Assembly (NCBI GenBank): GCA_963663165.1
Contig: OY760175.1
Location: forward strand, 5,824,001 to 5,888,000
DNA length: 64,000 nucleotides
Source of the DNA: an uncultured Desulfospira sp.
GTDB lineage: Bacteria; Desulfobacterota; Desulfobacteria; Desulfobacterales; Desulfobacteraceae
Reading direction: 5' to 3'
Position numbers and translations under genes: made by a program. Positions 6,223-64,000 of this stretch are shown in pieces (position 1 is the stretch's first letter; every line of letters begins with the position of its first letter). The notes beneath the pieces were generated by a model. The model had not been told where the DNA came from and searched no databases. It worked only from the letters and a program-made list of their open reading frames with translations.

Positions 6223-6376
6223 GGTCTACCCTCTCTTTTTTGGGTCCGTGGTGGTTATGTTATGGGTAGCATTAATTGGGGATTGAGGCAAATATCTGGT
6301 CTGGTTTTTTCGGCGGGGGCTGCGCTCATGATCCGGTGTAACGGATTGATATTGTAATTGAATTTAATTTAAAAAA

Positions 6377-6551
6377 GGAAACCGGAGAAAGGGAGACGGG
6401 AGACCGGAACCGTCAAGTTCCCTGGTTTGAGCGGTAGGGTTGGAGCGGTAGGGTTGGAGCGGTAGGGTTGGAGCGATAGGTGTCGGATGCCGGGTTCCCT
6501 TGGAGGGCGCATCCGGTCTCCTTCTTCCGGTTTCCGGTCTCCCTCCGTTTC
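6377..6551. repeat. Composite intergenic repeat: GGAGACC/G heptamer arms around three tandem 14-mers (GAGCGGTAGGGTTG)
   Basis: 14-mers at 6429, 6443 and 6457; a 46-nt stretch matches the reverse complement of 56974..57019 with 1 mismatch. Confidence 0.85.
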
Positions 6552-6773
6552 ATTGGAGATAAAATACATTTTTTTAACTGCGGTTCCCCGGGGCGTCCAA
6601 ATCAAATTTCTGGCATATTGGTTTAAAAAAAGGTATACACAAAAATTTAGGTAATTCGGCTGAAGAGGGTCCGGCCCGGGTATTCATCCAAAGGGCCGTG
6701 CATCTTCAAATCCGCAATGGCTTTAATATTACAAATGTCTTGGGCGAAGTGGTTTGTCCCGGAGGAAAGAAGA

Positions 6774-7880
6774 ATGAAAAAAGTTGGTATTGTCGGCTGG
6801 CGGGGTATGGTGGGATCGGTCCTCATGGAAAGAATGAGGGCTGAGAATGATTTTCAAAAATTTACGCCCTATTTTTTCACCACCTCCCAGGCCGGACAGG
6901 CCGCACCGGATGTGGGAAAAGAAGTGCCGGCCCTGATTGACGCCCATGACCTGGGTGCCTTAATGGAAATGGATGTTATTGTTTCCTGCCAGGGCGGTTC
7001 CTATACCGAGGCGATCCATCCGAAACTCGAAGAGGGCGAATGGAAAGGGTACTGGATTGATGCCGCCTCCACGTTGAGGATGGCGGACAACAGCATCATT
7101 GTCCTGGACCCGGTGAACCTGAAAGTAATTGAAGACGGACTGGCCCGGGGCATTAAAAATTTTATCGGGGGCAATTGTACGGTGTCTCTCATGCTCATGG
7201 CCCTAGGCGGCCTGTTTGAAAATGATGCCGTGGAATGGCTCACCTCAATGACCTATCAGGCCGCTTCCGGGGCCGGGGCCAAGAACATGGAAGAGCTGGT
7301 GGCCCAGATGCGCGCCATTGGCCAGGCCGCCTCAAGTCTTTTGGACGATCCGTCAAGCCCCATTCTGGACTTGGACCGGAAAGTCACCAACACCATCCGA
7401 TCGGCCGATTTCCCGGTGGAAAACTGGGGGGTCCCCCTGGGGGCCAGCCTGATTCCCTGGATTGACCGGGCCATGGACAACGGCCAGACCCGGGAAGAGT
7501 GGAAAGGGTTTGTGGAAACCAATAAAATCCTGGGAAGATCAGATAATCCCATTCCCATTGACGGCCAGTGCGTCCGTATCGGCTCCATGAGATGCCACAG
7601 CCAGGCCTTTACCATTAAACTCAAGCAGGATATCCCGTTAGCGGATATCAACAGCATGCTTTCGGAAAATAACAACTGGGTAAAGGTGATTCCCAATGTT
7701 CGGCATGACAGTGCCACCGAGCTGACCCCGGCCGCCGTGACCGGAACCCTGACCGTGCCTGTGGGGCGGATCCGGAAGATGAACCTGGGAGATCGGTTTT
7801 TGACCGCTTTCAGTGTGGGGGACCAGCTGTTGTGGGGGGCTGCGGAGCCGCTGAGGCGAATATTGAATATTATACTGTAG
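6774..7880 (+). CDS. asd: Aspartate-semialdehyde dehydrogenase
   Basis: [19 protein letters not shown] (catalytic Cys), [26 protein letters not shown] before ATG 6774. Confidence 0.98.
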
Positions 7881-7938
7881 ATGGGGAGACCCTAGACCGG
7901 AGGCTGGAGACTGGAAATGAGGGGCAGGGAAGAAAACA

Positions 7939-8835
7939 GTGAGAACGAATGACGGCCAGGGGGCTTTGGCCGGGCTGATCGCCACGGCATCCGCCTTTTT
8001 GATCTGGGGGCTGTGCCCCGTTTTCTGGAAAATTATTGCCCATGTTCCCGCCCTGGAAACCATTAACCACAGGATTGTCTGGTCCTTTTTTTTTCTGTTG
8101 CCGGTGATCTGGCTCCAGGGGAACTTAAGGCTGCTGGCACAGACCCTGACCTCCCCGGTGCTTCTGGGGAAATTGAGCATTACCGCCATGCTGGTGGCAT
8201 CCAACTGGCTCGTATTTATCTGGGCGGTCAACAACGGGCATATCCTTGATACCAGCCTGGGATACTATATCAACCCCCTGGTGAATGTGCTTTTTGGCAC
8301 TGTTTTCCTCAAAGAGCGCCTCAGGAAGATGCAGACCATCGCCGTGGGCATTGCCACCGCCGGGGTGGCTTACCTGACCTGGCAGCATGGCAGCTTTCCT
8401 TTGATTTCCCTTTACCTGGCCGTAAGTTTCGGTGCCTACGGGCTGTTAAGAAAAATGTTGAACCAGGACCCGGCCGTGGGCCTGGCCGTTGAAACCCTGC
8501 TGCTGACCCTGCCTTGCGCGGTCTACCTGATGTTCCTTGAATATAAAGGAACCGCCAGTTTTCTCCATGTGAACAGCCTGACCGATGTTTGCCTGATCTG
8601 TACGGCCCTGCTGACCGCCGTCCCGCTGCTGCTGTTCAATATCGGGGCAAGGCTCTTGAGATTATGCACCGTGGGATTTCTTCAGTACATTGCCCCTAGC
8701 GTGTCCTTTTCCCTGGCCATTTTTGTTTATGGGGAACCCTTGTCCCACCACCAGCTGATTGCCTTTGTCTGTATCTGGACGGCCCTGGCCGTCTATACGG
8801 TGGATTCCACCCGGGCTTTCCAGGGAAGCGGGTGA
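7939..8835 (+). CDS. rarD: EamA/DMT family transporter RarD
   Basis: HRIVWS, NWLVFIWAVNNGH..SLGYYINPL..LKERL, GFLQYIAP motifs. Confidence 0.93.
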   Translation: MRTNDGQGALAGLIATASAFLIWGLCPVFWKIIAHVPALETINHRIVWSFFFLLPVIWLQGNLRLLAQTLTSPVLLGKLSITAMLVASNWLVFIWAVNNGHILDTSLGYYINPLVNVLFGTVFLKERLRKMQTIAVGIATAGVAYLTWQHGSFPLISLYLAVSFGAYGLLRKMLNQDPAVGLAVETLLLTLPCAVYLMFLEYKGTASFLHVNSLTDVCLICTALLTAVPLLLFNIGARLLRLCTVGFLQYIAPSVSFSLAIFVYGEPLSHHQLIAFVCIWTALAVYTVDSTRAFQGSG

Positions 8836-57193: not shown

Positions 57194-57916
57194 ATGAAAC
57201 CCTTGGTCATCCTTAAAGCCGGGGACACCTTCCCGGATTTAATTGAACCGTTCAATGATTTCGAAACCTGGATCGAAACCGGGCTGGAACTGGGCACAAG
57301 GCCGGTTGAGGTGGTCGATGCCCGGACCGCTGAAACCCTGCCGGCCCCCGGTCAAATACAGGGCGCTGTCATTTCCGGGTCCCACGCCTATGTCACCGAT
57401 GGCCTTGACTGGAGCCTAAAGCTGGAAGCCTGGACCCGGGAACTGGTCCGCTGCCGGGTGCCGGTTCTGGGTATCTGCTACGGCCATCAGATTTTAGGCA
57501 AAGCCCTGGGCGGGACAGTGGATTTTCATCCCGTAAGCCTTGAAATCGGTACCCGGGATATAGCGCTGACCCGTTCTGCAACAGGTGATCCCCTGTTCCA
57601 GGGGCTGCCCCGGCAGTTTAAAGCCCATGTCTTTCATTCCCAGTCGGTGACCGTTTTACCCCCTGAAGCGATCCTGTTGGCCAAAAATTCATTTGAGCCC
57701 CACCAGGCCTTCCGGGTGGGGGACAATGCCTGGGGGGTCCAGTTCCACCCCGAAGCCTTTGCCGCCATTACCAAAGGATATATTCAACATCTGGAAGCCG
57801 ATGTCCGGGCATCGGGCCAGGACCCGGATACCCTCATTGATCAGTTGGAAGAGACCCCTTTTGCGGCGTCCATTTTAAAGCGGTTTTCCAGCCTGGTTTC
57901 TGGATACAGACAATAG
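57194..57916 (+). CDS. Type 1 glutamine amidotransferase (YfeJ/GMP-synthase-like)
   Basis: ISGS, GICYGHQ, GVQFHPE catalytic triad; TTGACA-N17-AATAAT upstream. Confidence 0.93.
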   Translation: MKPLVILKAGDTFPDLIEPFNDFETWIETGLELGTRPVEVVDARTAETLPAPGQIQGAVISGSHAYVTDGLDWSLKLEAWTRELVRCRVPVLGICYGHQILGKALGGTVDFHPVSLEIGTRDIALTRSATGDPLFQGLPRQFKAHVFHSQSVTVLPPEAILLAKNSFEPHQAFRVGDNAWGVQFHPEAFAAITKGYIQHLEADVRASGQDPDTLIDQLEETPFAASILKRFSSLVSGYRQ

Positions 57917-57921
57917 ATGCC

Positions 57922-59169
57922 ATGAAGTCTTCTTCCGGTGCCGGCATCCGGCGGACCACCGTCCTGAGAATTTTTCTGCCCTTTACCTTTGGGTATTTTT
58001 TGTCCTACGTGTTCCGGGTGGTCAATGCCGTCATTGCCCCTGACATTGCCCAGGACCTTGGCATTGGCCCGGCCGATTTAGGGCTGGTGACATCGTCTTA
58101 CTTCATTTCTTTTGCGGCGGCCCAGCTGCCTTTGGGGATTTTTCTGGACCGGCTCGGGCCCCGGGTGGTGGAATCCTTTCTGCTCTTGTTTGCCGGGGCT
58201 GGGGCCGTTATTTTTGCGGTGTCGGACAGCCTGACCGGGCTGATTCTGGGCCGGGGCCTTATCGGGTTCGGGGTATCGGCCTGCCTGATGGCGGCCTTTA
58301 AAAATTATGTGATCTGGTTTCCTTCAAAGATTCTGGCCCGGGTCAATGGATTTCAGGTGGCCTCAGGCGGGATGGGTGCCCTGGCTGCGGCAAGCCCGGT
58401 GGAGTGGGCCTTGAGCGTAACCGGATGGCGGGGCTTGTTTTGGGGCCTGGCGATCTTGTCCTTTGGGATTGCAGCCCTTATTTTCCTGGTGGTGCCCGAA
58501 TCCCCGGATAAAAAATCTCCGGAAAGCCTTTCAGACCAGATCCGGGGTATTGTCACGGTTTTCAAAAGTCCGGTGTTCTGGCGGATCACCCCGCTGGCCA
58601 CCCTGTCCCTGGCCGGGTATGCCTCCCTTCAGGGACTTTGGGCCGGTCCCTGGCTCAGGGATGTGGCAGGCCTTGGCCGCCAGGACGTGGCTGCGGCCCT
58701 GTCTGTATCCGCCCTGGCCATGATTGCCGGCTATATTCTCTCAGGATATTTGGCAGAACGGCTTTCCAGGCGCAACATCCCGGTCATGAAAACCGCTGCC
58801 GCCGGCATGGCCGGATCCATGTTGGTTCTTTCGGTTATTGCCTTTGACCTGCCCGTTTCGCCGTGGATCATCATGGGATTTTTCGGCTTTTTCGGCACCA
58901 TGGGGATTCTGGCTTATACTTCCCTTACCCTTGCTTTTCCGCCCGCTCTTTCAGGGCGGGCCACCACCGGGCTGAACATGCTGGTGTTTGCCGGGGCCTT
59001 TGCCGTCCAGTGGGCCATCGGTATAGTCATTAACCTGTGGGAGGTTTCAGCCGGCAACACTTATGACCCGGCCGGATACCGGGCCGCATTTTCAGGGCTT
59101 CTCTTTTGCCAGGCAGCGGCGTTGATCTGGTTTTGGATTTCAGGCAGGCGGCCAGATCAGAGGGCTTAA
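57922..59169 (+). CDS. MFS transporter
   Basis: QLPLGIFLDRLGPR motif A, GRGLIGFG, about 12 TM segments. Confidence 0.92.
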   Translation: MKSSSGAGIRRTTVLRIFLPFTFGYFLSYVFRVVNAVIAPDIAQDLGIGPADLGLVTSSYFISFAAAQLPLGIFLDRLGPRVVESFLLLFAGAGAVIFAVSDSLTGLILGRGLIGFGVSACLMAAFKNYVIWFPSKILARVNGFQVASGGMGALAAASPVEWALSVTGWRGLFWGLAILSFGIAALIFLVVPESPDKKSPESLSDQIRGIVTVFKSPVFWRITPLATLSLAGYASLQGLWAGPWLRDVAGLGRQDVAAALSVSALAMIAGYILSGYLAERLSRRNIPVMKTAAAGMAGSMLVLSVIAFDLPVSPWIIMGFFGFFGTMGILAYTSLTLAFPPALSGRATTGLNMLVFAGAFAVQWAIGIVINLWEVSAGNTYDPAGYRAAFSGLLFCQAAALIWFWISGRRPDQRA

Positions 59170-59551
59170 CCTTTGCCCGGATGCTGACCAAAAGGTTGGC
59201 CAGGATAACCGCCACCACCAGGCCGAATACGAGCCAGGCCCTTGAGGTGAATGACGCCTTGCCGGCCCAGGCCGCATAGGCATAGGGAAGGATGGTATTC
59301 ACCAGGAGGATGCCGCCCCAGATGAATACCGCTTTGATATTCATGGCCTTTCGCCGGGCCATGGAATTGACAAATTGGGACAGGCTCAGGATATAAAGGG
59401 GAACCGTTGCCATGTCCAGAAACAAAAACAGATACGGATTGATGTTATGGTTCCTGGCCAGATCACAGAAAAGCCAGAATTTGGCCAGATCATACCCCCA
59501 CAACAACAGCATGGCCTTGATCTGGTGATTCCGTGTAATGTTGAAAGCCAT
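59030..59551 (-). CDS. Hypothetical membrane protein (about 4 TM)
   Basis: ATG overlaps the upstream TAA (TAATG); the 3' end overlaps the convergent MFS gene by 140 nt, so the tail is uncertain. Confidence 0.6.
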   Translation of the reverse strand: MAFNITRNHQIKAMLLLWGYDLAKFWLFCDLARNHNINPYLFLFLDMATVPLYILSLSQFVNSMARRKAMNIKAVFIWGGILLVNTILPYAYAAWAGKASFTSRAWLVFGLVVAVILANLLVSIRAKVKPSDLAACLKSKTRSTPLPGKREALKMRPGIRPGHKCCRLKPPTG

Positions 59552-60600
59552 TAAATTTTGTCCCTGACCACGTTAAAGCGGATCACTGCATCGGTGACGG
59601 TGCTGCGGCCCGAATGCCAGAAACCCGCAAGCCAGACCAGCTGGATAAACAGCAGGACTCCCGGATCCCAGATGGACTTGATCCCCTTGCCAAGGTCCAT
59701 GGTGACCAGGCCCAAAGGGAGCAAAAAGGCCAGGACACAGGAATAGGCAATGGCCCCTAAGGCCATGTACTGGTACATGGAAAATTTAAGTTCGCCTCTG
59801 AAATCGGCCCTGAAAAACTCCGATATCACCCGCCAGGCCTGGGTAATGATCAGGGTTTCAAGGAAGGCCGCCCGGATAGACCCCTCTAAGAAAAGCCAGG
59901 TGCCCACCAGCGCCGACATCCCGTAAATCATGGAGGTAATCATCTGGATGGGAATCATCTTTTCCCCGTCAAGCCCCGAGGCATAGGCAATCTTCTTGGT
60001 CTTTCCCGTGAACACCACATAGAATTTTGAGAACAGGCGGCGGGTAAAGGGGGCGCATTCCTTTAAGGGTTTTCCGTAGCAGCAGCCAAAGCTCAGGCAT
60101 GCCAGCCGTCCCAGGGACTCCCCATAGGCATAGGCAATGGACACCGCGGCCAGCATGACAAATACATCAACACAAAACCCCATGAGCCGTCCGGCGGTCT
60201 GATTGACCAGAAGGATAATAAAGGGGCCGGCGATGGTCCCCACAAACACCGCCCCCCCAACGGTCAGGGTGGCCTGCTTTTTTTCCACGATCCCTGCCAC
60301 AATTTTGGAGGCCGGAATGGTAACGGCCAGAAACAAACCTGTTAATATCAGCAGGGCGGACACGGGAATCCCGGCCCCAACGGCCAGAACCAGTAACATG
60401 GCCACACTGAAGGCATAGGCAGCAGCCGACAGCAGGCCGTACCAGGTCAGGTTCAGACCCTGCCAGGACCCGTTGCCGTTTTTTCTTAAAGGAACCGCGG
60501 CCGCCATCTGCCATTCTTCCCCGGGCAGATATTTAAACCCCCAGCCCAGCACCAGCACCATAAAAATTCCCAGCCCGAGAACAAATAAAAAAGATTCCAC
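59551..60600 (-). CDS. Lgt (prolipoprotein diacylglyceryl transferase)-like membrane protein, divergent paralogue
   Basis: TWYGL, VGG, LGRLACLSFGCCYG, PIQM, WRVISEFFRAD in Lgt motif order. Confidence 0.8.
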   Translation of the reverse strand: MESFLFVLGLGIFMVLVLGWGFKYLPGEEWQMAAAVPLRKNGNGSWQGLNLTWYGLLSAAAYAFSVAMLLVLAVGAGIPVSALLILTGLFLAVTIPASKIVAGIVEKKQATLTVGGAVFVGTIAGPFIILLVNQTAGRLMGFCVDVFVMLAAVSIAYAYGESLGRLACLSFGCCYGKPLKECAPFTRRLFSKFYVVFTGKTKKIAYASGLDGEKMIPIQMITSMIYGMSALVGTWLFLEGSIRAAFLETLIITQAWRVISEFFRADFRGELKFSMYQYMALGAIAYSCVLAFLLPLGLVTMDLGKGIKSIWDPGVLLFIQLVWLAGFWHSGRSTVTDAVIRFNVVRDKI

Positions 60601-60619
60601 GTTATCCCCCCGTTTAATA

Positions 60620-61630
60620 TCATCTCGCCTGGGCGTTCGCCTGGGCGATCTCGGATCTCACCTTGACCTGTGTTTCCACCAAAGGCCGCCCAAAGCCTAC
60701 GGAAAAGCGGCTTTGGGCGTCTGTTCTGGCCATATTTTCCAGAATATCCCTTGAAACGGCCACCTTTTCCTTTTGAAACATCAGGATGGTGGTGGAACTG
60801 CCCGGCTTAAAAAGGCTTTTGGGCTGGCCTTTTTTTAAAAACAGCCCCGGGGAGACCTCAACCGGATCATGGTACCCCTGATCAGAATAGCACTGGACAA
60901 TGTTGCCGATCATCAATGCCACCACCTCCACCATGGCCACAAGCCCGATGCCGTCGCCGCCGTCCACATCCGTATCAATAATGGTCACCACCCGCCGGTT
61001 TTTGGAGCAGGGGGTCACCATCCGGACAACGGCCCCGGGATTGCAGGAGTGAAAACGGCCGTCAATTTCATATATATCCAGCACCCTGCCGGATACGGGC
61101 ACATGGTTGTAATGGTACTTGTCCGGGGTCAGCCTGAAAATGGCAAAATCTCCGTCTTCAAAGGCCCAGAGCCAGTCCGGCCGGTCCGTCCCGATGAGTT
61201 CTTTAAACTCGAAAAATTTTTCTTTTATCCGGATGGGGCTGTTCTCTTTGAATGATCCGGCCAGGACCATGGCGTCGGCAGGGGACACCACCGCTCGCTT
61301 GTCCTCCGGCATGGGCCGAAGTTCCTCAAAGCGGATTTGCCGCTCAAACACCTTTCGAAATGAGGTCAGCTCATTTAAGGCCCCCCGGATCTCACTTAAA
61401 TCAATCCCATGGGTTTTCAAAAAAGAATGGGGATGGACCGGCGGTGTTCTGAACCTGAAGTCATAATTGAGCGCTCCCAAAAGGGCCGATGTGCGCGAAC
61501 ATGTCAGAAGGTTAAATAAGACCGGGGCCTTTTCCCTTATATCCGAATAAACCAGGCGGATAACCCGGTCTTTGAATAATTTTTCCGTAACCACACGACC
61601 GGTTTCCCGGTCAACAAACTGATGCGTCAT
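60620..61630 (-). CDS. psd: Phosphatidylserine decarboxylase-family proenzyme
   Basis: FERQI, VSPAD, RLTPDKYHYNHVP, NRR, FKPGSSTT autocleavage motif. Confidence 0.9.
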   Translation of the reverse strand: MTHQFVDRETGRVVTEKLFKDRVIRLVYSDIREKAPVLFNLLTCSRTSALLGALNYDFRFRTPPVHPHSFLKTHGIDLSEIRGALNELTSFRKVFERQIRFEELRPMPEDKRAVVSPADAMVLAGSFKENSPIRIKEKFFEFKELIGTDRPDWLWAFEDGDFAIFRLTPDKYHYNHVPVSGRVLDIYEIDGRFHSCNPGAVVRMVTPCSKNRRVVTIIDTDVDGGDGIGLVAMVEVVALMIGNIVQCYSDQGYHDPVEVSPGLFLKKGQPKSLFKPGSSTTILMFQKEKVAVSRDILENMARTDAQSRFSVGFGRPLVETQVKVRSEIAQANAQAR

Positions 61631-64000
61631 ATTTCGCTTTTTCCCTGCTGATCACAAGGATGATAAGATAAATTAATTTTTTTAGATCCTTGATCTTAAG
61701 ATGGTTGTCCTCAAATCCCTGCCGGGCCGCCTTAAAAAAATCCGGCAGATCCTGGTTGTCCAGAATGCTTTCAAGGGCCTGTCCGTATTTAGGATCCCGG
61801 TAGGAGGCCCACAGGTCCATTTTCCAGGACCCCTTTTCAAGCAGGTCAAACCCCTGGGCAATATGGGTTTTTCTTAAGTTTTCCCGGTAGTGCTGTTCGG
61901 CCTGTTTATTAAATTCCCGGCCATTGACCGTCATGGGGTTTTTGGCCCCGGGGTCCTGTTTCATTATCCCGGCGGCCAGTTTTCCCCAGGCGGCATACCG
62001 TTGGGGGTGGGTAATCCGTTTTTCCAGGTCTATAAGGACCCTTTCCATTTTAAGGGCCTCCACCAGGCCGGCCCCGTCGGTCTTTAACAGGTGAATCAAT
62101 GCCTTTTGGTAGGCCTTGACGCTGATTTTTGTGTAGCCCGGATACCGGTGGCTTTTTTTGGTTTTCTCGACAGCCTTGAGAATCTTGACCAGAAAGGCAT
62201 TCTTTGTTCCGGTGTTAACGTAAAACACCGGGATATTGATGGCCGTACAATAAAAAATCTGGCGGCGTTCGCTTTCCACTTCCGGGTCATCCGGAATCAT
62301 GGGGTGGCTGATTTTTCCGGACAGGATATACTGATAGGCAAGGCAGGTGATCAGCCGCTGCAAATCAGCCGCATTGCCCATGTCCTGGCAGACATTTTCA
62401 AAAATGGAAAAATACCGGTGTTCAAACCCGGAATATCCCATCTGAGCATGTTTCCTTAGGCGGATCAGCTGATACAGGGCCATTCTTTCATCAAAGATCC
62501 CCATCTCGGTTAAGTCTTTTTTAAGCTGCTGTTCGCTTTGGACCCTTCCGTCCAGGGCCGGGCTTTCAAAGGTACTCATGATGGAGGCAAAATAGTCGAT
62601 GAGCCGGTAATCCGGTATAAAATCCCCTTTCAGGTTCAGCACCCGGGAGATCATTTTATCCATTATAACGGGGCCGAAGGGGGTTAAGGGGCGGCCGATC
62701 ACCTTGATGGCGGCCTTGGCCTTCCATTTTCGCCAGATCATGCGAAGATGGGTATAGTCCAGTTCATGGGGCAAAAATCCCAGGACCTGTTCAGGGTGGA
62801 AATCCTTGAATTCCAGGCGAAAGGGAGAGGCGCTGTAGATGCCGGGAAACAGGGGCAGAAAATGCTCGCTGATTTTGATGACCAGATCCCCCACCATTTT
62901 TTCAAAGGGTTCTCCCAGGCCGTAAGCCCGGTCCGCCATGAGTCTGGACAGCTTCAGGCTGCCCAGGCTGATGTGGGTCCCGTTGTTGGCCAGGCTGATG
63001 TTGGAGGTGTCCGGCAGCACCACCAGGTTGGAGGTGATGATTCCGGCCTCCTTGAGCTTGGCCATACCGTTGAGCCGGCTTCGGGACAACACCTTGTGGC
63101 AGATGTTCATGTAATCTTTTTTGGCTTCGCCCCGGTCCCACCCCGAAAGGCAGGGGCTCATGAACAGTTCCCGGTAAAATGAGTCTGAAATGCAGCTGTT
63201 CAGTTCTCTCTGCCGCAAGGGCGGAACAGAGGAAAAGAACACCTTTACCTGCTGGCCGGTTTCGGTCAGGTGAAATTTTTCCTGGGCATAGGCCACCAGG
63301 ACCTGGATGAGCAAAAACCGCAGCAGGGTTTCACCGGCCAGTTTCTGGCCAAGGCCGGAACCGGCCTTCTCAGACTTGACCGGATGAAAAGAAAACAGCT
63401 CAGGCGAGGTGTTGTCATTGGAAAAGTGGGCCAGCATCTGTTTGCCGCACTGTTCTATGGGGGCGGATAATTCAGGCTCATCTCCCAAGGCATCGGCCAG
63501 GGAAAGCTTTAACAGATAACTGACCGGAATCCGGATAACGGTCTGTCCATTGGCGTTGAACACAAACTCATCCACGTCTTTGCGGTATCCCGAAGAAGGA
63601 TCGGATTTATCGGCCTTTAAATCGGAATTAAACACTGTGTTGGCAAAGGAATTCAAGGTTTGCCGGGGCAGCCTGACCCAGGAGTTTTCCCAGACATCGG
63701 TCCGGGTGTCGGAAAGGTATTTTTCCAGGGCCGCGATGGGCTTATCGCTGGTATCTCCGGCCCTGGCCCGTCTCACGATGTTTTTATAGTAGTTGGAAGA
63801 TTCAATGACCAGGGGCAAGTCCAGGTTTTCCCGTCTGCCCTCAACCACGGCCTGAAATTCATTTTCCGCCCCGGCCGTGGCATCCCCGGAACAAAAGGGA
63901 AGGGCGCGGATAAACGCATCTGCCCGGGTGGTATCGATTCCTAAAACCCGGGCAAGGGACATCCCGCCGGCATCGTCCGCATTTGCCTGGTTCTCAGGCA
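61611..64000 (-). CDS. Large hypothetical protein, predicted GCS2/glutamine-synthetase-fold carboxylate-amine ligase (frame open to the window edge)
   Basis: TAGAENEFQ, SPELFS, NGTHISLG, YSASPF, GIFD..LYQLIR, FEHR motifs in YbdK/GCS order. Confidence 0.7.
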   Translation of the reverse strand, partial: PENQANADDAGGMSLARVLGIDTTRADAFIRALPFCSGDATAGAENEFQAVVEGRRENLDLPLVIESSNYYKNIVRRARAGDTSDKPIAALEKYLSDTRTDVWENSWVRLPRQTLNSFANTVFNSDLKADKSDPSSGYRKDVDEFVFNANGQTVIRIPVSYLLKLSLADALGDEPELSAPIEQCGKQMLAHFSNDNTSPELFSFHPVKSEKAGSGLGQKLAGETLLRFLLIQVLVAYAQEKFHLTETGQQVKVFFSSVPPLRQRELNSCISDSFYRELFMSPCLSGWDRGEAKKDYMNICHKVLSRSRLNGMAKLKEAGIITSNLVVLPDTSNISLANNGTHISLGSLKLSRLMADRAYGLGEPFEKMVGDLVIKISEHFLPLFPGIYSASPFRLEFKDFHPEQVLGFLPHELDYTHLRMIWRKWKAKAAIKVIGRPLTPFGPVIMDKMISRVLNLKGDFIPDYRLIDYFASIMSTFESPALDGRVQSEQQLKKDLTEMGIFDERMALYQLIRLRKHAQMGYSGFEHRYFSIFENVCQDMGNAADLQRLITCLAYQYILSGKISHPMIPDDPEVESERRQIFYCTAINIPVFYVNTGTKNAFLVKILKAVEKTKKSHRYPGYTKISVKAYQKALIHLLKTDGAGLVEALKMERVLIDLEKRITHPQRYAAWGKLAAGIMKQDPGAKNPMTVNGREFNKQAEQHYRENLRKTHIAQGFDLLEKGSWKMDLWASYRDPKYGQALESILDNQDLPDFFKAARQGFEDNHLKIKDLKKLIYLIILVISREKAKYDASVC

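Follow-up and report, generated by a model that had tools for sequence, protein, structure and literature searches.

Results

What would a bacterium make with a carboxylate-amine ligase, a relative of the decarboxylase PSD and a relative of Lgt, the phosphatidylglycerol:prolipoprotein diacylglyceryl transferase, when these are encoded side by side? The question is raised by one end of a 64,000-nucleotide stretch of DNA from an uncultured Desulfospira sp. (the window), where four co-oriented genes, all on the minus strand, are packed tightly. The ligase gene is an open reading frame that covers positions 61611-63962 and runs on, within the window, to its end at 64000; it is followed by the open reading frames of the psd-like gene (60620..61630, 336 aa, assigned with PF02666), the lgt-like gene (59551..60600, 349 aa, GTG start, assigned with PF01790) and a small membrane protein gene (59030..59551, 173 aa). 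The junctions given in a preliminary description of this DNA were all matched in the sequence: the ligase and psd-like genes overlap by 20 nt, from the end of the ligase stop codon TGA at 61611 to the psd-like ATG at 61630; 19 nt that include GGGGGG separate the psd-like TGA from the GTG of the lgt-like gene; and the lgt-like stop and the start of the fourth gene are fused as TAATG. The same description guessed that additional operon genes lie past 64000, which proved wrong, as the sequence beyond the window end holds no operon genes but, upstream of the ligase gene, the terminator of the preceding gene (14-bp stem, L002 6233-6202) and then a promoter region. The probable start codon of the ligase is an ATG that lies 28 nt outside the window, at window-equivalent 64028; the resulting protein of 805 aa would be similar in length to its homologues (approximately 800 aa).

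The label of carboxylate-amine ligase was invisible to sequence profiles, as profile and sequence searches returned no Pfam, NCBIfam or PDB match and hhalign found no similarity to GshA or YbdK at the sequence level (probability 0.15% and 0.6%), yet it was borne out by the predicted fold. In VIA-align, the AF2 model (pLDDT 90.8) matched GshF (3ln7_B, Z 17.1), GshA (1v4g_A, Z 16.3, 412 aligned residues), YbdK (1tt4_A, Z 16.2) and PafA (Z 14.3; range 13.8-14.3 for PafA/Dop), so that the neighbours with the GCL/YbdK/PafA fold span Z 14-17 over 339-412 aligned residues. The informative top matches in Foldseek were all GCL, YbdK, PafA or Dop, which belong to the superfamily of carboxylate-amine ligases with the glutamine synthetase fold. 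Across 39 homologues, H352, E388, E536, R538, R588 and R589 do not vary and E55 and E57 hardly do, and the conserved Glu, His and Glu-x-Arg residues sit on core strands of the model; a scan for transmembrane (TM) segments found no hydrophobic segment above threshold. The modelled structure confirms a glutamate-cysteine-ligase fold in a family of its own, which comprises 701 clusters at 50% identity and in which the named members are all 'hypothetical'. The catalytic fold is common to glutamate-cysteine ligases (GshA, the N-terminal domain of GshF, YbdK/GCS2) and PafA/Dop, but the ligase of the window differs from all of these by some 400 additional residues, including a C-terminal helical bundle, and by the lack of detectable sequence similarity. 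Its substrates are therefore guessed from the fold and the product formula.

The two family labels given to the neighbouring genes also held. The PSD-like protein matches PF02666 (PS_Dcarbxylase, E 3.2e-40), although it reaches none of the NCBIfam PSD equivalog cut-offs (at best 142.5 versus 371 bits). E. coli PSD (7cnw) is matched by its profile at E 3e-16, with the PAD and YHxxH motifs in register. Across 30 sequences there is no variation at D119, H173, H176, G277 and S279, and S278 is conserved in at least 90%. As judged from its sequence, this enzyme is a paralogue within the PSD family of pyruvoyl decarboxylases with an intact Gly-Ser self-cleavage site; the self-processing site and the Asp/His motifs are shared with E. 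coli Psd (PDB 7cnw, 6l06; PF02666). It does not represent the housekeeping orthologue and is approximately 100 residues longer than the PSD of its own genome. The profile also matches PsiD-type tryptophan decarboxylases, which show that the PSD fold is able to take non-lipid amino acids. By likeness to both E. coli Psd and the PsiD type, we propose for the PSD-like protein a pyruvoyl-dependent alpha-decarboxylation of a free alpha-amino-acid head group, which would be a gamma-glutamyl group, whereas PSD acts on phosphoserine.

The Lgt-like protein matches PF01790 (LGT) with an E of 3.1e-8 (33.7 bits versus a cut-off of 24.9), lies under the NCBIfam equivalog cut-off and aligns to canonical Lgt with a probability of 96.6% in hhalign. 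In its AF2 model (pLDDT 90.2) nine helices are predicted, corresponding to the seven-helix core of Lgt and one extra helix at each end, and E. coli Lgt (5azb) is the only significant match in Foldseek (E 1.8e-4, 16% identity). Besides the fold, the protein keeps the residues that align in hhalign to R143, R239, E243 and R246 of E. coli Lgt (R165, R257, E261 and R264, respectively), and it has the GCCYGKP motif in common with the housekeeping Lgt of its own genome. Lys and Arg residues are biased to the side of the catalytic loop (18.6 versus 1.8 on the other side), a bias found in 30/30 sequences. As this loop charge bias is opposite to that of E. coli Lgt, the positive-inside rule alone predicts that the Lgt-like protein is inverted in the membrane, with its active site facing the cytoplasm.

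Housekeeping psd and lgt genes, for which the preliminary description had proposed a check, are both present elsewhere in the genome, at C1:2.19 Mb and 6.73 Mb (267.6 bits versus a cut-off of 225 for psd; E 5e-67 for lgt), and the operon copies are extra paralogues. A search of this genome gave neither gshA nor ybdK of the E. coli type. Among 80 loci in the gene-neighbourhood survey, the PSD-like gene is present in 74 (directly downstream of the ligase in 73) and the Lgt-like gene in 69; both accompany the ligase at 67/71 loci with enough flank. The four exceptions and one case at a contig end carry both genes elsewhere in the genome (5/5), and in one genome the ligase lies approximately 1 Mb from the PSD-like/Lgt-like pair. 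When 121 genomes of the phylum were sampled, the ligase occurred in 10, and the PSD-like and Lgt-like genes in the same 10 and in one fragmented genome. These three genes (the trio) travel as a unit in hundreds of anaerobic bacteria. We found no published description of the combination in the literature searched, in line with the earlier statement that none was known.

The fourth gene is less constant. It encodes a small, polytopic membrane protein with a conserved core (residues 1-140, approximately), and its non-conserved tail overlaps a convergent MFS gene by 140 nt; the protein has no Pfam or NCBIfam match, and the protein atlas gave nothing informative. Homologues lie downstream of the Lgt-like gene in only 9/65 loci, from Desulfospira, Desulfobacter, Desulfobacterium and Desulfobacula records, and elsewhere the position is taken, depending on lineage, by membrane proteins or DksA-type proteins. 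DUF2062 genes hold it in other lineages, and a relationship of the fourth protein to DUF2062 was rejected (hhalign probability 0.25%). We propose that the fourth gene is a clade-specific small membrane accessory.

Relatives show an enrichment of the trio near phosphate genes, with PhoU or PstSCA genes at most 8 kb away in 14/80 loci. Pho-box-array scores were higher in 37 gaps upstream of the trio than in 216 control gaps (Mann-Whitney p 7e-5 with 4 units, 0.005 with 2 units). The trio of this genome has no pst or pho neighbours. Upstream of its operon, 11-bp-phased repeats that are conserved in this clade precede a -10 element, and the array scores 6.4, compared with 24-47 for true Pho boxes, ranking 196, 442 and 40 among 2283 intergenic gaps with 4, 2 and 5 units, respectively. 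The putative phosphate-box signal in the window is thus weak, and the operon may be regulated by phosphate. The proximity to pst/phoU and the Pho-box-like arrays in relatives would fit a phosphorus-sparing product.

Phosphorus-sparing classes described by Ding et al. 2024 (PMC11181052, section 13) are betaine lipids, ornithine lipids and glycolipids. The same paper reports BACys ('N-butyramide cysteine glycerol') lipids in Desulfatibacillum alkenivorans PF2803T, only at low phosphate, with DAG, AEG and DEG cores as in PE and PG and with a tentative structure, drawn as 'N-butyramide cysteine' from MS2 only (Ding et al. 2024, PMC11181052). A head-group fragment of 205.064 (C7H13O3N2S+) is reported there, and the [M+H]+ of DAG(31:0) BACys is tabulated as C41H79N2O7S (Ding et al. 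2024, PMC11181052). In 12 of its 19 passages on 'gene' and 'biosynthe', PMC11181052 names no gene, and 'decarboxylase' occurs 0 times. By our computation, loss of CO2 from gamma-Glu-Cys gives C7H14N2O3S, with a thiyl cation of 205.0641, and the [M+H]+ of the DAG(31:0) conjugate is C41H79N2O7S, equal to the tabulated entry, so that the formula and head-group fragment of BACys equal those of the predicted trio product, and the structure proposed below is an isomer reading of the published formula. The name Desulfatibacillum does not appear among the 120 matches listed in either homologue search, where named rows are a minority. D. alkenivorans presumably shares its phylum, and probably its order, with many carriers of the trio, and we infer a link between BACys and the operon.

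Discussion

The preliminary description had supposed that the ligase builds an amide-linked head group, that the Lgt paralogue lipidates it and that the PSD paralogue decarboxylates it. This logic is supported as also the best reading here, and it can be made specific because the BACys formula (Ding et al. 2024) is predicted from it. These genes probably make a phosphorus-free membrane lipid that contains sulfur and nitrogen, and we see an even chance that the trio builds a thioether cysteine lipid of BACys formula, that is, gamma-Glu-Cys with a diradylglyceryl group on the thiol and the alpha-carboxyl of Glu removed. On this reading, an existing glycerophospholipid would be turned, on the cytoplasmic side of the inner membrane, into an aminolipid with a thioether bond and no phosphorus. 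The soluble GCL-fold ligase would make gamma-Glu-Cys by an ATP-dependent amide bond between the gamma-carboxyl of glutamate and the cysteine amine, and the cytoplasm-facing Lgt paralogue would move the diradylglyceryl group from phosphatidylglycerol onto the thiol of cysteine, releasing glycerol phosphate and thereby freeing phosphorus. The PSD paralogue would engage the glutamyl residue as a Schiff base through the free alpha-amine and remove the alpha-carboxyl. A 4-aminobutanoyl amide would remain, and the product is predicted to be S-(diradylglyceryl)-N-(4-aminobutanoyl)cysteine. Ligation, lipidation and decarboxylation may take place in this or another order. The chemistry proposed for the Lgt-like protein is identical to that of Lgt, from PG to a cysteine thiol, but its acceptor would be a dipeptide instead of a lipobox protein, and transfer of a whole diradylglyceryl group fits with BACys having the same cores as PE and PG.

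From the folds, only the types of reaction can be fixed (diacylglyceryl transfer, amide ligation and alpha-decarboxylation); no enzyme of known substrate resembles the ligase in sequence, and the window has no strong Pho box. These points leave an appreciable, lesser chance that the trio makes or modifies a membrane lipid other than BACys, for example one whose phosphorus-containing head group comes from ligating an amino acid onto PE or PS and then decarboxylating it, or another thiol- or hydroxyl-linked diacylglyceryl compound. Nevertheless, an exact match of formula and fragment to decarboxylated gamma-Glu-Cys is unlikely by chance, and the phosphate-gene and Pho-box-like enrichment around the trio of relatives also argues against such a lipid. 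It is unlikely that the ligase and decarboxylase make a soluble molecule (a low-molecular-weight thiol of the 4-aminobutanoyl-cysteine type), with the Lgt-like protein anchoring a fraction of it or having another membrane role, given that the Lgt-like gene accompanies the other two in 10/10 ligase-bearing sampled genomes, is usually translationally coupled to them and has conserved catalytic arginines; a soluble thiol would accord with the negative search for E. coli-type gshA or ybdK in this genome, with the use of free amino acids by PSD-fold enzymes (PsiD matches) and with the genome in which the ligase stands apart.

We give little credence to a cytoplasmic lipidation of peptides or proteins, in which the ligase would work like PafA and attach a tag that bears glutamate, and the Lgt-like protein would add diacylglycerol to a protein cysteine. 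The structural neighbours of the ligase do include PafA and Dop, and canonical Lgt acts on proteins, but GCL and YbdK outscore PafA, the trio has no conserved small substrate gene, its fourth genes being membrane or DksA-type according to lineage, and a PSD-type decarboxylase would have no evident role on a protein. Most improbable of all is that the psd-like and lgt-like genes are redundant or housekeeping copies in a chance neighbourhood: the Pfam families of the two are those of the housekeeping enzymes, but the separate psd and lgt fit the profiles much better, the operon copies are far under the equivalog cut-offs and the three genes are conserved together, which refutes this reading.

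The proposed role of the trio, replacement of phospholipids when phosphate is scarce, is like that of the pathways for betaine lipids (made by BtaA/BtaB), ornithine lipids (made by OlsB/OlsA) and glycolipids, but neither the enzyme families nor the chemistry are shared at all. Unlike these pathways, the thioether route proposed here would take the diradylglyceryl core directly from a phospholipid and join it through sulfur. The trio thus provides candidate genes for a lipid class, containing sulfur and nitrogen and no phosphorus, that was reported in 2024 without published genes.

Organisation of the operon

The operon consists of four minus-strand open reading frames (ORFs), encoding a ligase (gene 1, 61611-63962, running past the window end), a PSD-like decarboxylase (gene 2, 60620-61630), an Lgt-like transferase (gene 3, 59551-60600) and a small membrane protein (gene 4, 59030-59551), so the four co-oriented genes of the preliminary description are borne out. 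Its account of tight coupling was also confirmed when read from the sequence: the TGA of the ligase gene ends at 61611 and the ATG of the psd-like gene lies at 61630, giving the 20-nt overlap; the 19-nt gap between the psd-like and lgt-like genes is a spacer which holds GGGGGG after the TGA and leads to the GTG start of the lgt-like gene; and TAATG is common to genes 3 and 4. An ATG located 28 nt beyond position 64000 could serve as the start of gene 1 and would yield a protein of 805 residues; homologues of gene 1 are approximately 800 residues long. An AGGAT element before this ATG is kept among relatives.

The possibility had been raised that more genes of the operon lie beyond position 64000, and this was not the case, as a terminator and a promoter region are found upstream of gene 1. 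The upstream neighbour encodes a T5SS/PEP-CTERM-repeat protein of 672 residues (TIGR04393, E = 7e-59; positions 6259-8277 of the examined locus L002, equivalent to window positions 64259-66277, minus strand) and ends in its own strong terminator with a 14-bp stem. Since this neighbour is separate, the operon comprises genes 1-4 and none further. On the other flank, a class-I glutamine amidotransferase (NF006562, 278.6 bits, above its cut-off) and an MFS transporter, the gene for which starts 5 nt after that of the amidotransferase, form a plus-strand pair (window 57194-59169) that runs towards the lipid operon from the opposite direction; no connection between this pair and the operon was seen. 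The MFS gene (57922-59169, plus strand) and gene 4 overlap by 140 nt (window 59030-59169), which is explained by the overlapping tail of gene 4 being unconserved among its homologues.

Gene 1 is predicted to encode a ligase with a glutamine-synthetase-type fold

Gene 1 had been described as a GCS-fold ligase, a claim which stood at the level of fold and not of sequence. No Pfam or NCBIfam family matched gene 1 at E ≤ 0.01, its family profile found no PDB sequence at E ≤ 10, a single-sequence search of the PDB (phmmer) and a protein atlas search were also empty, and hhalign gave probabilities of only 0.15% against E. coli GshA and 0.6% against YbdK. With all of these searches empty, a sequence-level family assignment was rejected. 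The family itself is large and well conserved: 2916 relatives were found at E ≤ 0.001 among 8000 scored candidates, and the full scan at the same threshold yielded 701 clusters at 50% identity. Among the 120 relatives listed, none carries a Pfam domain, and those that have names are all called "hypothetical". An alignment of 39 family members contains 41 invariant columns.

The predicted model of gene 1 is confident (pLDDT 90.8, pTM 0.92), and the informative matches obtained with it in Foldseek were all glutamate-cysteine ligases, YbdK, PafA or Dop. The top four were all GshF or GshA, with probabilities of 0.98-1.00, the best being 3ln6 (E = 3.3e-3). A second structure search, independent of Foldseek, placed GshF (3ln7_B, Z 17.1, 394 residues aligned), GshA (1v4g_A, Z 16.3, 412 aligned) and YbdK (1tt4_A, Z 16.2, 339 of 354 aligned) above PafA (Z 14.3) and Dop (Z 13.8), with glutamine synthetases at Z 8-9 and unrelated structures at Z < 6. 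The predicted model has the glutamine-synthetase-type catalytic fold; gene 1 thus shares its fold with the GshA and YbdK families (Z 14-17 across the ligase-type matches), whereas its sequence falls outside them. Within the 39 sequences Glu55 and Glu57 are nearly invariant and His352, Glu388, Glu536 and Arg538 are invariant. All six residues map to core strands of the model and are putative equivalents of the catalytic site. No hydrophobic segment of the protein exceeds the transmembrane threshold. If the pathway proposed below is right, gene 1 would be an ATP-dependent Glu-Cys ligase of a new family, beyond the reach of any profile library.

Gene 2 is a PSD-family decarboxylase

Gene 2 matches PS_Dcarbxylase (PF02666; E = 3.2e-40, 138.4 bits against a cut-off of 22) and lies below every NCBIfam PSD equivalog cut-off, the best score being 142.5 bits against 371. 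When the family profile of gene 2 is aligned to E. coli PSD (E = 3e-16), the PAD and YHxxH motifs coincide; the profile also matches PsiD-type tryptophan decarboxylases. The catalytic Asp119, His173 and His176, aligned to PAD and YHRVH of E. coli PSD, are invariant in the family. In the PGSS(T) self-cleavage motif Gly277 and Ser279 are invariant and Ser278 is at least 90% conserved, the exact PGSST being present in 58 of 69 ORFs.

Gene 3 is an Lgt relative with a predicted inverted orientation

The match of gene 3 to LGT (PF01790) is weak (33.7 bits against a cut-off of 24.9) and the NCBIfam Lgt equivalog is missed by a wide margin (23 bits against 334). The gene 3 profile found no Lgt among PDB sequences, kinship being detected only by Pfam, hhalign and the fold search. 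E. coli Lgt (5azb) was the only Foldseek match of the gene 3 model (pLDDT 90.2) at E ≤ 0.001 (E = 1.8e-4, target-normalised TM-score 0.51), and hhalign aligned the gene 3 family to canonical Lgt with a probability of 96.6%. In this alignment Arg165, Arg257, Glu261 and Arg264 of gene 3 correspond to Arg143, Arg239, Glu243 and Arg246 of E. coli Lgt. Arg165 and Arg257 are invariant in 30 sequences, and their E. coli counterparts Arg143 and Arg239 are the arginines required by that enzyme.

Gene 3 carries the motif GRLAC-SFGCCYGKP, unlike the GRLGNFINGELWG of E. coli Lgt, and we considered whether it could be a catalytically altered Lgt. This was rejected, as GCCYGKP is also found in the housekeeping Lgt of the source genome (locus L005 1420-2265, approximately 6726374-6727219 of C1, the contig that carries the operon), which has GRIGCFFAGCCYGKP where E. 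coli has GRLGNFINGELWG; the cysteine-rich signature is thus a variant of this lineage and does not point to lost catalysis. The same housekeeping Lgt has Phe in the position of His103 of E. coli Lgt.

The gene 3 model contains nine long helices (residues 2-24, 53-75, 80-105, 114-134, 146-171, 218-238, 242-261, 275-293 and 313-331), that is, the Lgt core with one additional helix at either end. In 30 aligned family members the loops on the catalytic side carry on average 18.6 Lys plus Arg residues (range 14-24), compared with 1.8 (range 0-3) on the opposite side, and 30/30 sequences share this direction of bias. This is the opposite of E. coli Lgt, whose Lys/Arg-rich loops (RRANR, RRTKR, RKPR and the YRR tail) lie across the membrane from the catalytic ones; in that enzyme the non-catalytic side is cytoplasmic and the catalytic loops are periplasmic. 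On the basis of the charge bias and the positive-inside rule, we predict that the core of gene 3 is inverted, with its active site facing the cytoplasm. Soluble ligases and PSD-type enzymes likewise act in the cytoplasm.

The three enzymes co-occur and are distinct from housekeeping copies

Separate housekeeping psd and lgt genes, the presence of which the preliminary description had left to be checked, were both found elsewhere in the source genome, near 2.19 Mb and 6.73 Mb of C1. The second PSD (C1:2189828-2190331) passes the NF003678 equivalog cut-off (267.6 bits against 225) and the second Lgt (C1:6726455-6727186) was matched at E = 5e-67. The psd-like and lgt-like genes of the operon are paralogues, not the housekeeping copies. 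A tblastn search of the same genome with E. coli GshA and YbdK gave nothing better than E = 0.31.

A neighbourhood survey, also proposed earlier, showed that the genes co-occur and are linked in other genomes. Named species genomes contained 537 ligase relatives among 599 matched stretches, from which we took the best 80 loci. A PSD-like gene was present in 74 of these 80, directly downstream in 73, and an Lgt-like gene in 69, the distance between the two being at most 400 nt in 62 loci. Where at least 2300 nt of sequence follow the ligase (71 loci), both were found in 67. Four loci were exceptions (L012, L013, L050 and L086); in their genomes and in that of L059, which lies at a contig end, full-length copies of both genes were found elsewhere in all five cases, at 45-62% identity. 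One of these genomes, the Desulfobacter-labelled genome of L012 (G001), has a PSD-like/Lgt-like pair at C1:5412550-5414627 with no ligase alongside, approximately 1 Mb from its ligase (near 6.38 Mb), which indicates that the trio formed by genes 1-3 can work unlinked. Record titles among the 80 loci span many Desulfobacterota orders and also include NC10, Acidobacteria and a Heliomicrobium-labelled bin, and one ligase protein match is named Candidatus Wunengus.

We also drew 121 genomes evenly from the phylum, the source genome included. The ligase was found in 10 of them, in all of which the trio genes adjoin, and PSD-like and Lgt-like genes of this type were found in the same 10 and in one more genome, G124. 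The latter, an assembly of 250 contigs, was the only genome of the 121 with a PSD-like/Lgt-like pair (C231:10565-12631) and no ligase match, and its ligase may have been cut off at a contig end. The pattern of co-occurrence is without real exception; the sampled genomes are kin, and no formal statistic is attached to it.

The fourth gene varies between clades

Gene 4 has no recognisable family in Pfam or NCBIfam and the protein atlas was uninformative. Its family has a conserved core of approximately 140 residues and comes after the Lgt-like gene in just 9 of 65 loci, and gene 4 is clade-specific. Other small proteins are encoded in this position elsewhere. A clear DUF2062 protein follows the Lgt-like gene in L034, L045, L056 and L062 (L034 was scanned, 99.7 bits), and a weak DUF2062-like protein does so in 12 Geobacter-type loci (L035, L039, L041, L044, L051, L066, L075, L078, L079, L080, L082 and L083); the two that were scanned reached 19-25 bits, under the cut-off of 27.4. 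The DUF2062-type gene, which encodes a small membrane protein, often overlaps the Lgt-like gene by 23 nt. In L015, L019, L026 and L040 (two scanned) the gene that follows encodes a DksA/TraR-type zinc-finger protein. Gene 4 as a DUF2062 relative was itself rejected (hhalign probability 0.25%). We speculate that a small membrane accessory protein of varying family may help to handle or flip the lipid.

Association with phosphate regulation

Within the window no pst or pho gene lies near the trio: in the source genome the pst operons are at 2.22 and 2.29 Mb, phoU-phoB-phoR at 5.24 Mb and the trio at 5.88 Mb, the window itself spanning C1:5824001-5888000. The pst and phoU promoters of this genome have clear arrays of TTCTAACA-type units phased by 11 bp, and 11 such units were used to build a Pho-box weight matrix, leaving out the trio promoter. 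The strongest arrays outside the training promoters precede a PHO4-family transporter of 760 residues (C1:6647540-6649972) and a protein of 268 residues with a marginal GNAT match (C1:2356167-2357276), which may be another phosphate-starvation gene. The matrix is meaningful because its top match outside training precedes a phosphate transporter. Besides that transporter, no informative lipid genes were found at the strong Pho-box gaps of this genome.

The gap upstream of the trio holds five units phased by 11 bp (TTAGCAC, GTAACAT, TTAGCCC, GTAACAC and AAAACAT), in an array of five to six TTAGCA/GTAACA-type units that ends 7 nt before TATAGT. Its 4-unit Pho score is 6.4, compared with 24-47 at the pst, phoU and PHO4-transporter promoters, and among 2283 intergenic gaps it ranks 196th with four units, 442nd with two and 40th with five. 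Phased units ahead of a -10 element are an architecture typical of an OmpR/PhoB-type activator. In related Desulfobacteraceae, phased units (TTCACA, TTAGCA, GTAACA and GAAACA) are kept directly before the -10 element. The array of the source genome (L002 6076-6130, equivalent to window positions 64076-64130, minus strand) has an additional 22-nt block with the units CCTTAGCCCCA and TTGTAACACGA. In the relatives shown, the aligned promoters lack this two-unit block, which has the look of a tandem duplication involving one putative regulator-binding box.

Across the family, genes for PhoU or PstS/C/A lie within 8 kb in 14 of the best 80 loci of the 537 relatives. Furthermore, 37 gaps upstream of the trio had higher Pho-array scores than 216 other intergenic gaps taken from the same loci (p = 7e-5 with four units and p = 0.005 with two, Mann-Whitney test). 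The phosphate link is weak in this window and stronger across the family.

A proposed pathway and its match to a known aminolipid

Replacement of phospholipids in phosphate starvation is a major microbial adaptation. The three enzymes of the operon would be able to make a phosphorus-free lipid in three steps, given here in one possible order. The glutamate-cysteine ligase (GCL)-type enzyme would form gamma-Glu-Cys; the Lgt-type enzyme would transfer the diradylglyceryl group of a phospholipid to the thiol, releasing glycerol phosphate and retaining the ether/ester core; and the PSD-type enzyme would remove the alpha-carboxyl of the glutamyl residue, leaving 4-aminobutanoyl-cysteine, "a butyramide linked to a cysteine". 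Only this carboxyl would be open to attack, because a PSD-type enzyme needs a free alpha-amine beside the carboxyl.

A lipid of this kind has been described in Desulfatibacillum alkenivorans PF2803T, which under phosphate limitation replaces PE, PG and cardiolipin almost completely by glucuronosyl lipids and a new class of sulfur-containing aminolipids, "BACys" or "N-butyramide cysteine glycerol" lipids (Ding et al. 2024, PMC11181052). Their structure, tentatively derived from MS2, has a head group with a fragment of m/z 205.064 (C7H13O3N2S+), on DAG, AEG and DEG cores, which are those of PE and PG (PMC11181052). We calculated that gamma-Glu-Cys minus CO2 is C7H14N2O3S, and that the thiyl cation of decarboxylated gamma-Glu-Cys has m/z 205.0641, compared with the published 205.064. 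As a thioether with DAG(31:0) its [M+H]+ would be C41H79N2O7S at 743.5603, compared with a table entry of C41H79O7N2S at m/z 743.5587 for BACys-DAG(31:0) (PMC11181052). The predicted product of the trio therefore matches the published BACys formula and head-group fragment, a formula being blind to thioether versus ester and to an isomer of the structure drawn.

No genes for BACys are named in the accessible part of that paper (PMC11181052), in which the genes of this new sulfur- and nitrogen-containing lipid class, relevant to anaerobic sulfate and metal reducers, are unassigned. Across the literature within reach of our searches, which covered few subscription journals, "butyramide cysteine" was found in that one paper only, and no paper on sulfur aminolipids or on phosphorus limitation of sulfate reducers assigned genes to BACys. 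Nor was a gene assignment for BACys found in literature on phosphate, lipids or the transcriptome of Desulfatibacillum, on Lgt, PSD and GCL in phosphate starvation, or on an aminobutyryl-cysteine-diacylglycerol thioether. The preliminary description had known of no account of this combination of genes, and we found none either, although one could exist in the subscription journals that were mostly uncovered. No Desulfatibacillum is among the best 80 of the 537 ligase relatives, and the name does not occur among the 120 matches listed in either protein search, in which most entries are without names.

The operon is real, conserved and so far undescribed, and it probably specifies a pathway for a membrane-lipid head group that uses these three reaction types. 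That it is a pathway for a phosphorus-free cysteine aminolipid, with BACys as its specific product, is in our judgement an evenly balanced proposal, and we suggest more tentatively that it is the missing gene set for phosphorus-free thioether aminolipids of the BACys class. With a conserved three-gene candidate, the question of the BACys genes becomes directly testable.

If the proposal is true, several activities would be the first of their kind: an Lgt-family enzyme working inside-out on a small-molecule thiol of the cytoplasm, a PSD-family enzyme decarboxylating a gamma-glutamyl head group, and a glutamate-cysteine-type ligase family unrecognised by profile libraries. It would give a name to a family of approximately 800-residue proteins now annotated as "hypothetical", provide a gene marker for BACys-type lipids in sediments and metagenomes, and give Lgt and PSD, both of them textbook membrane enzymes, a wider chemistry than is known at present. 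Hundreds of anaerobic species could then strip the phosphate off their own phospholipids.
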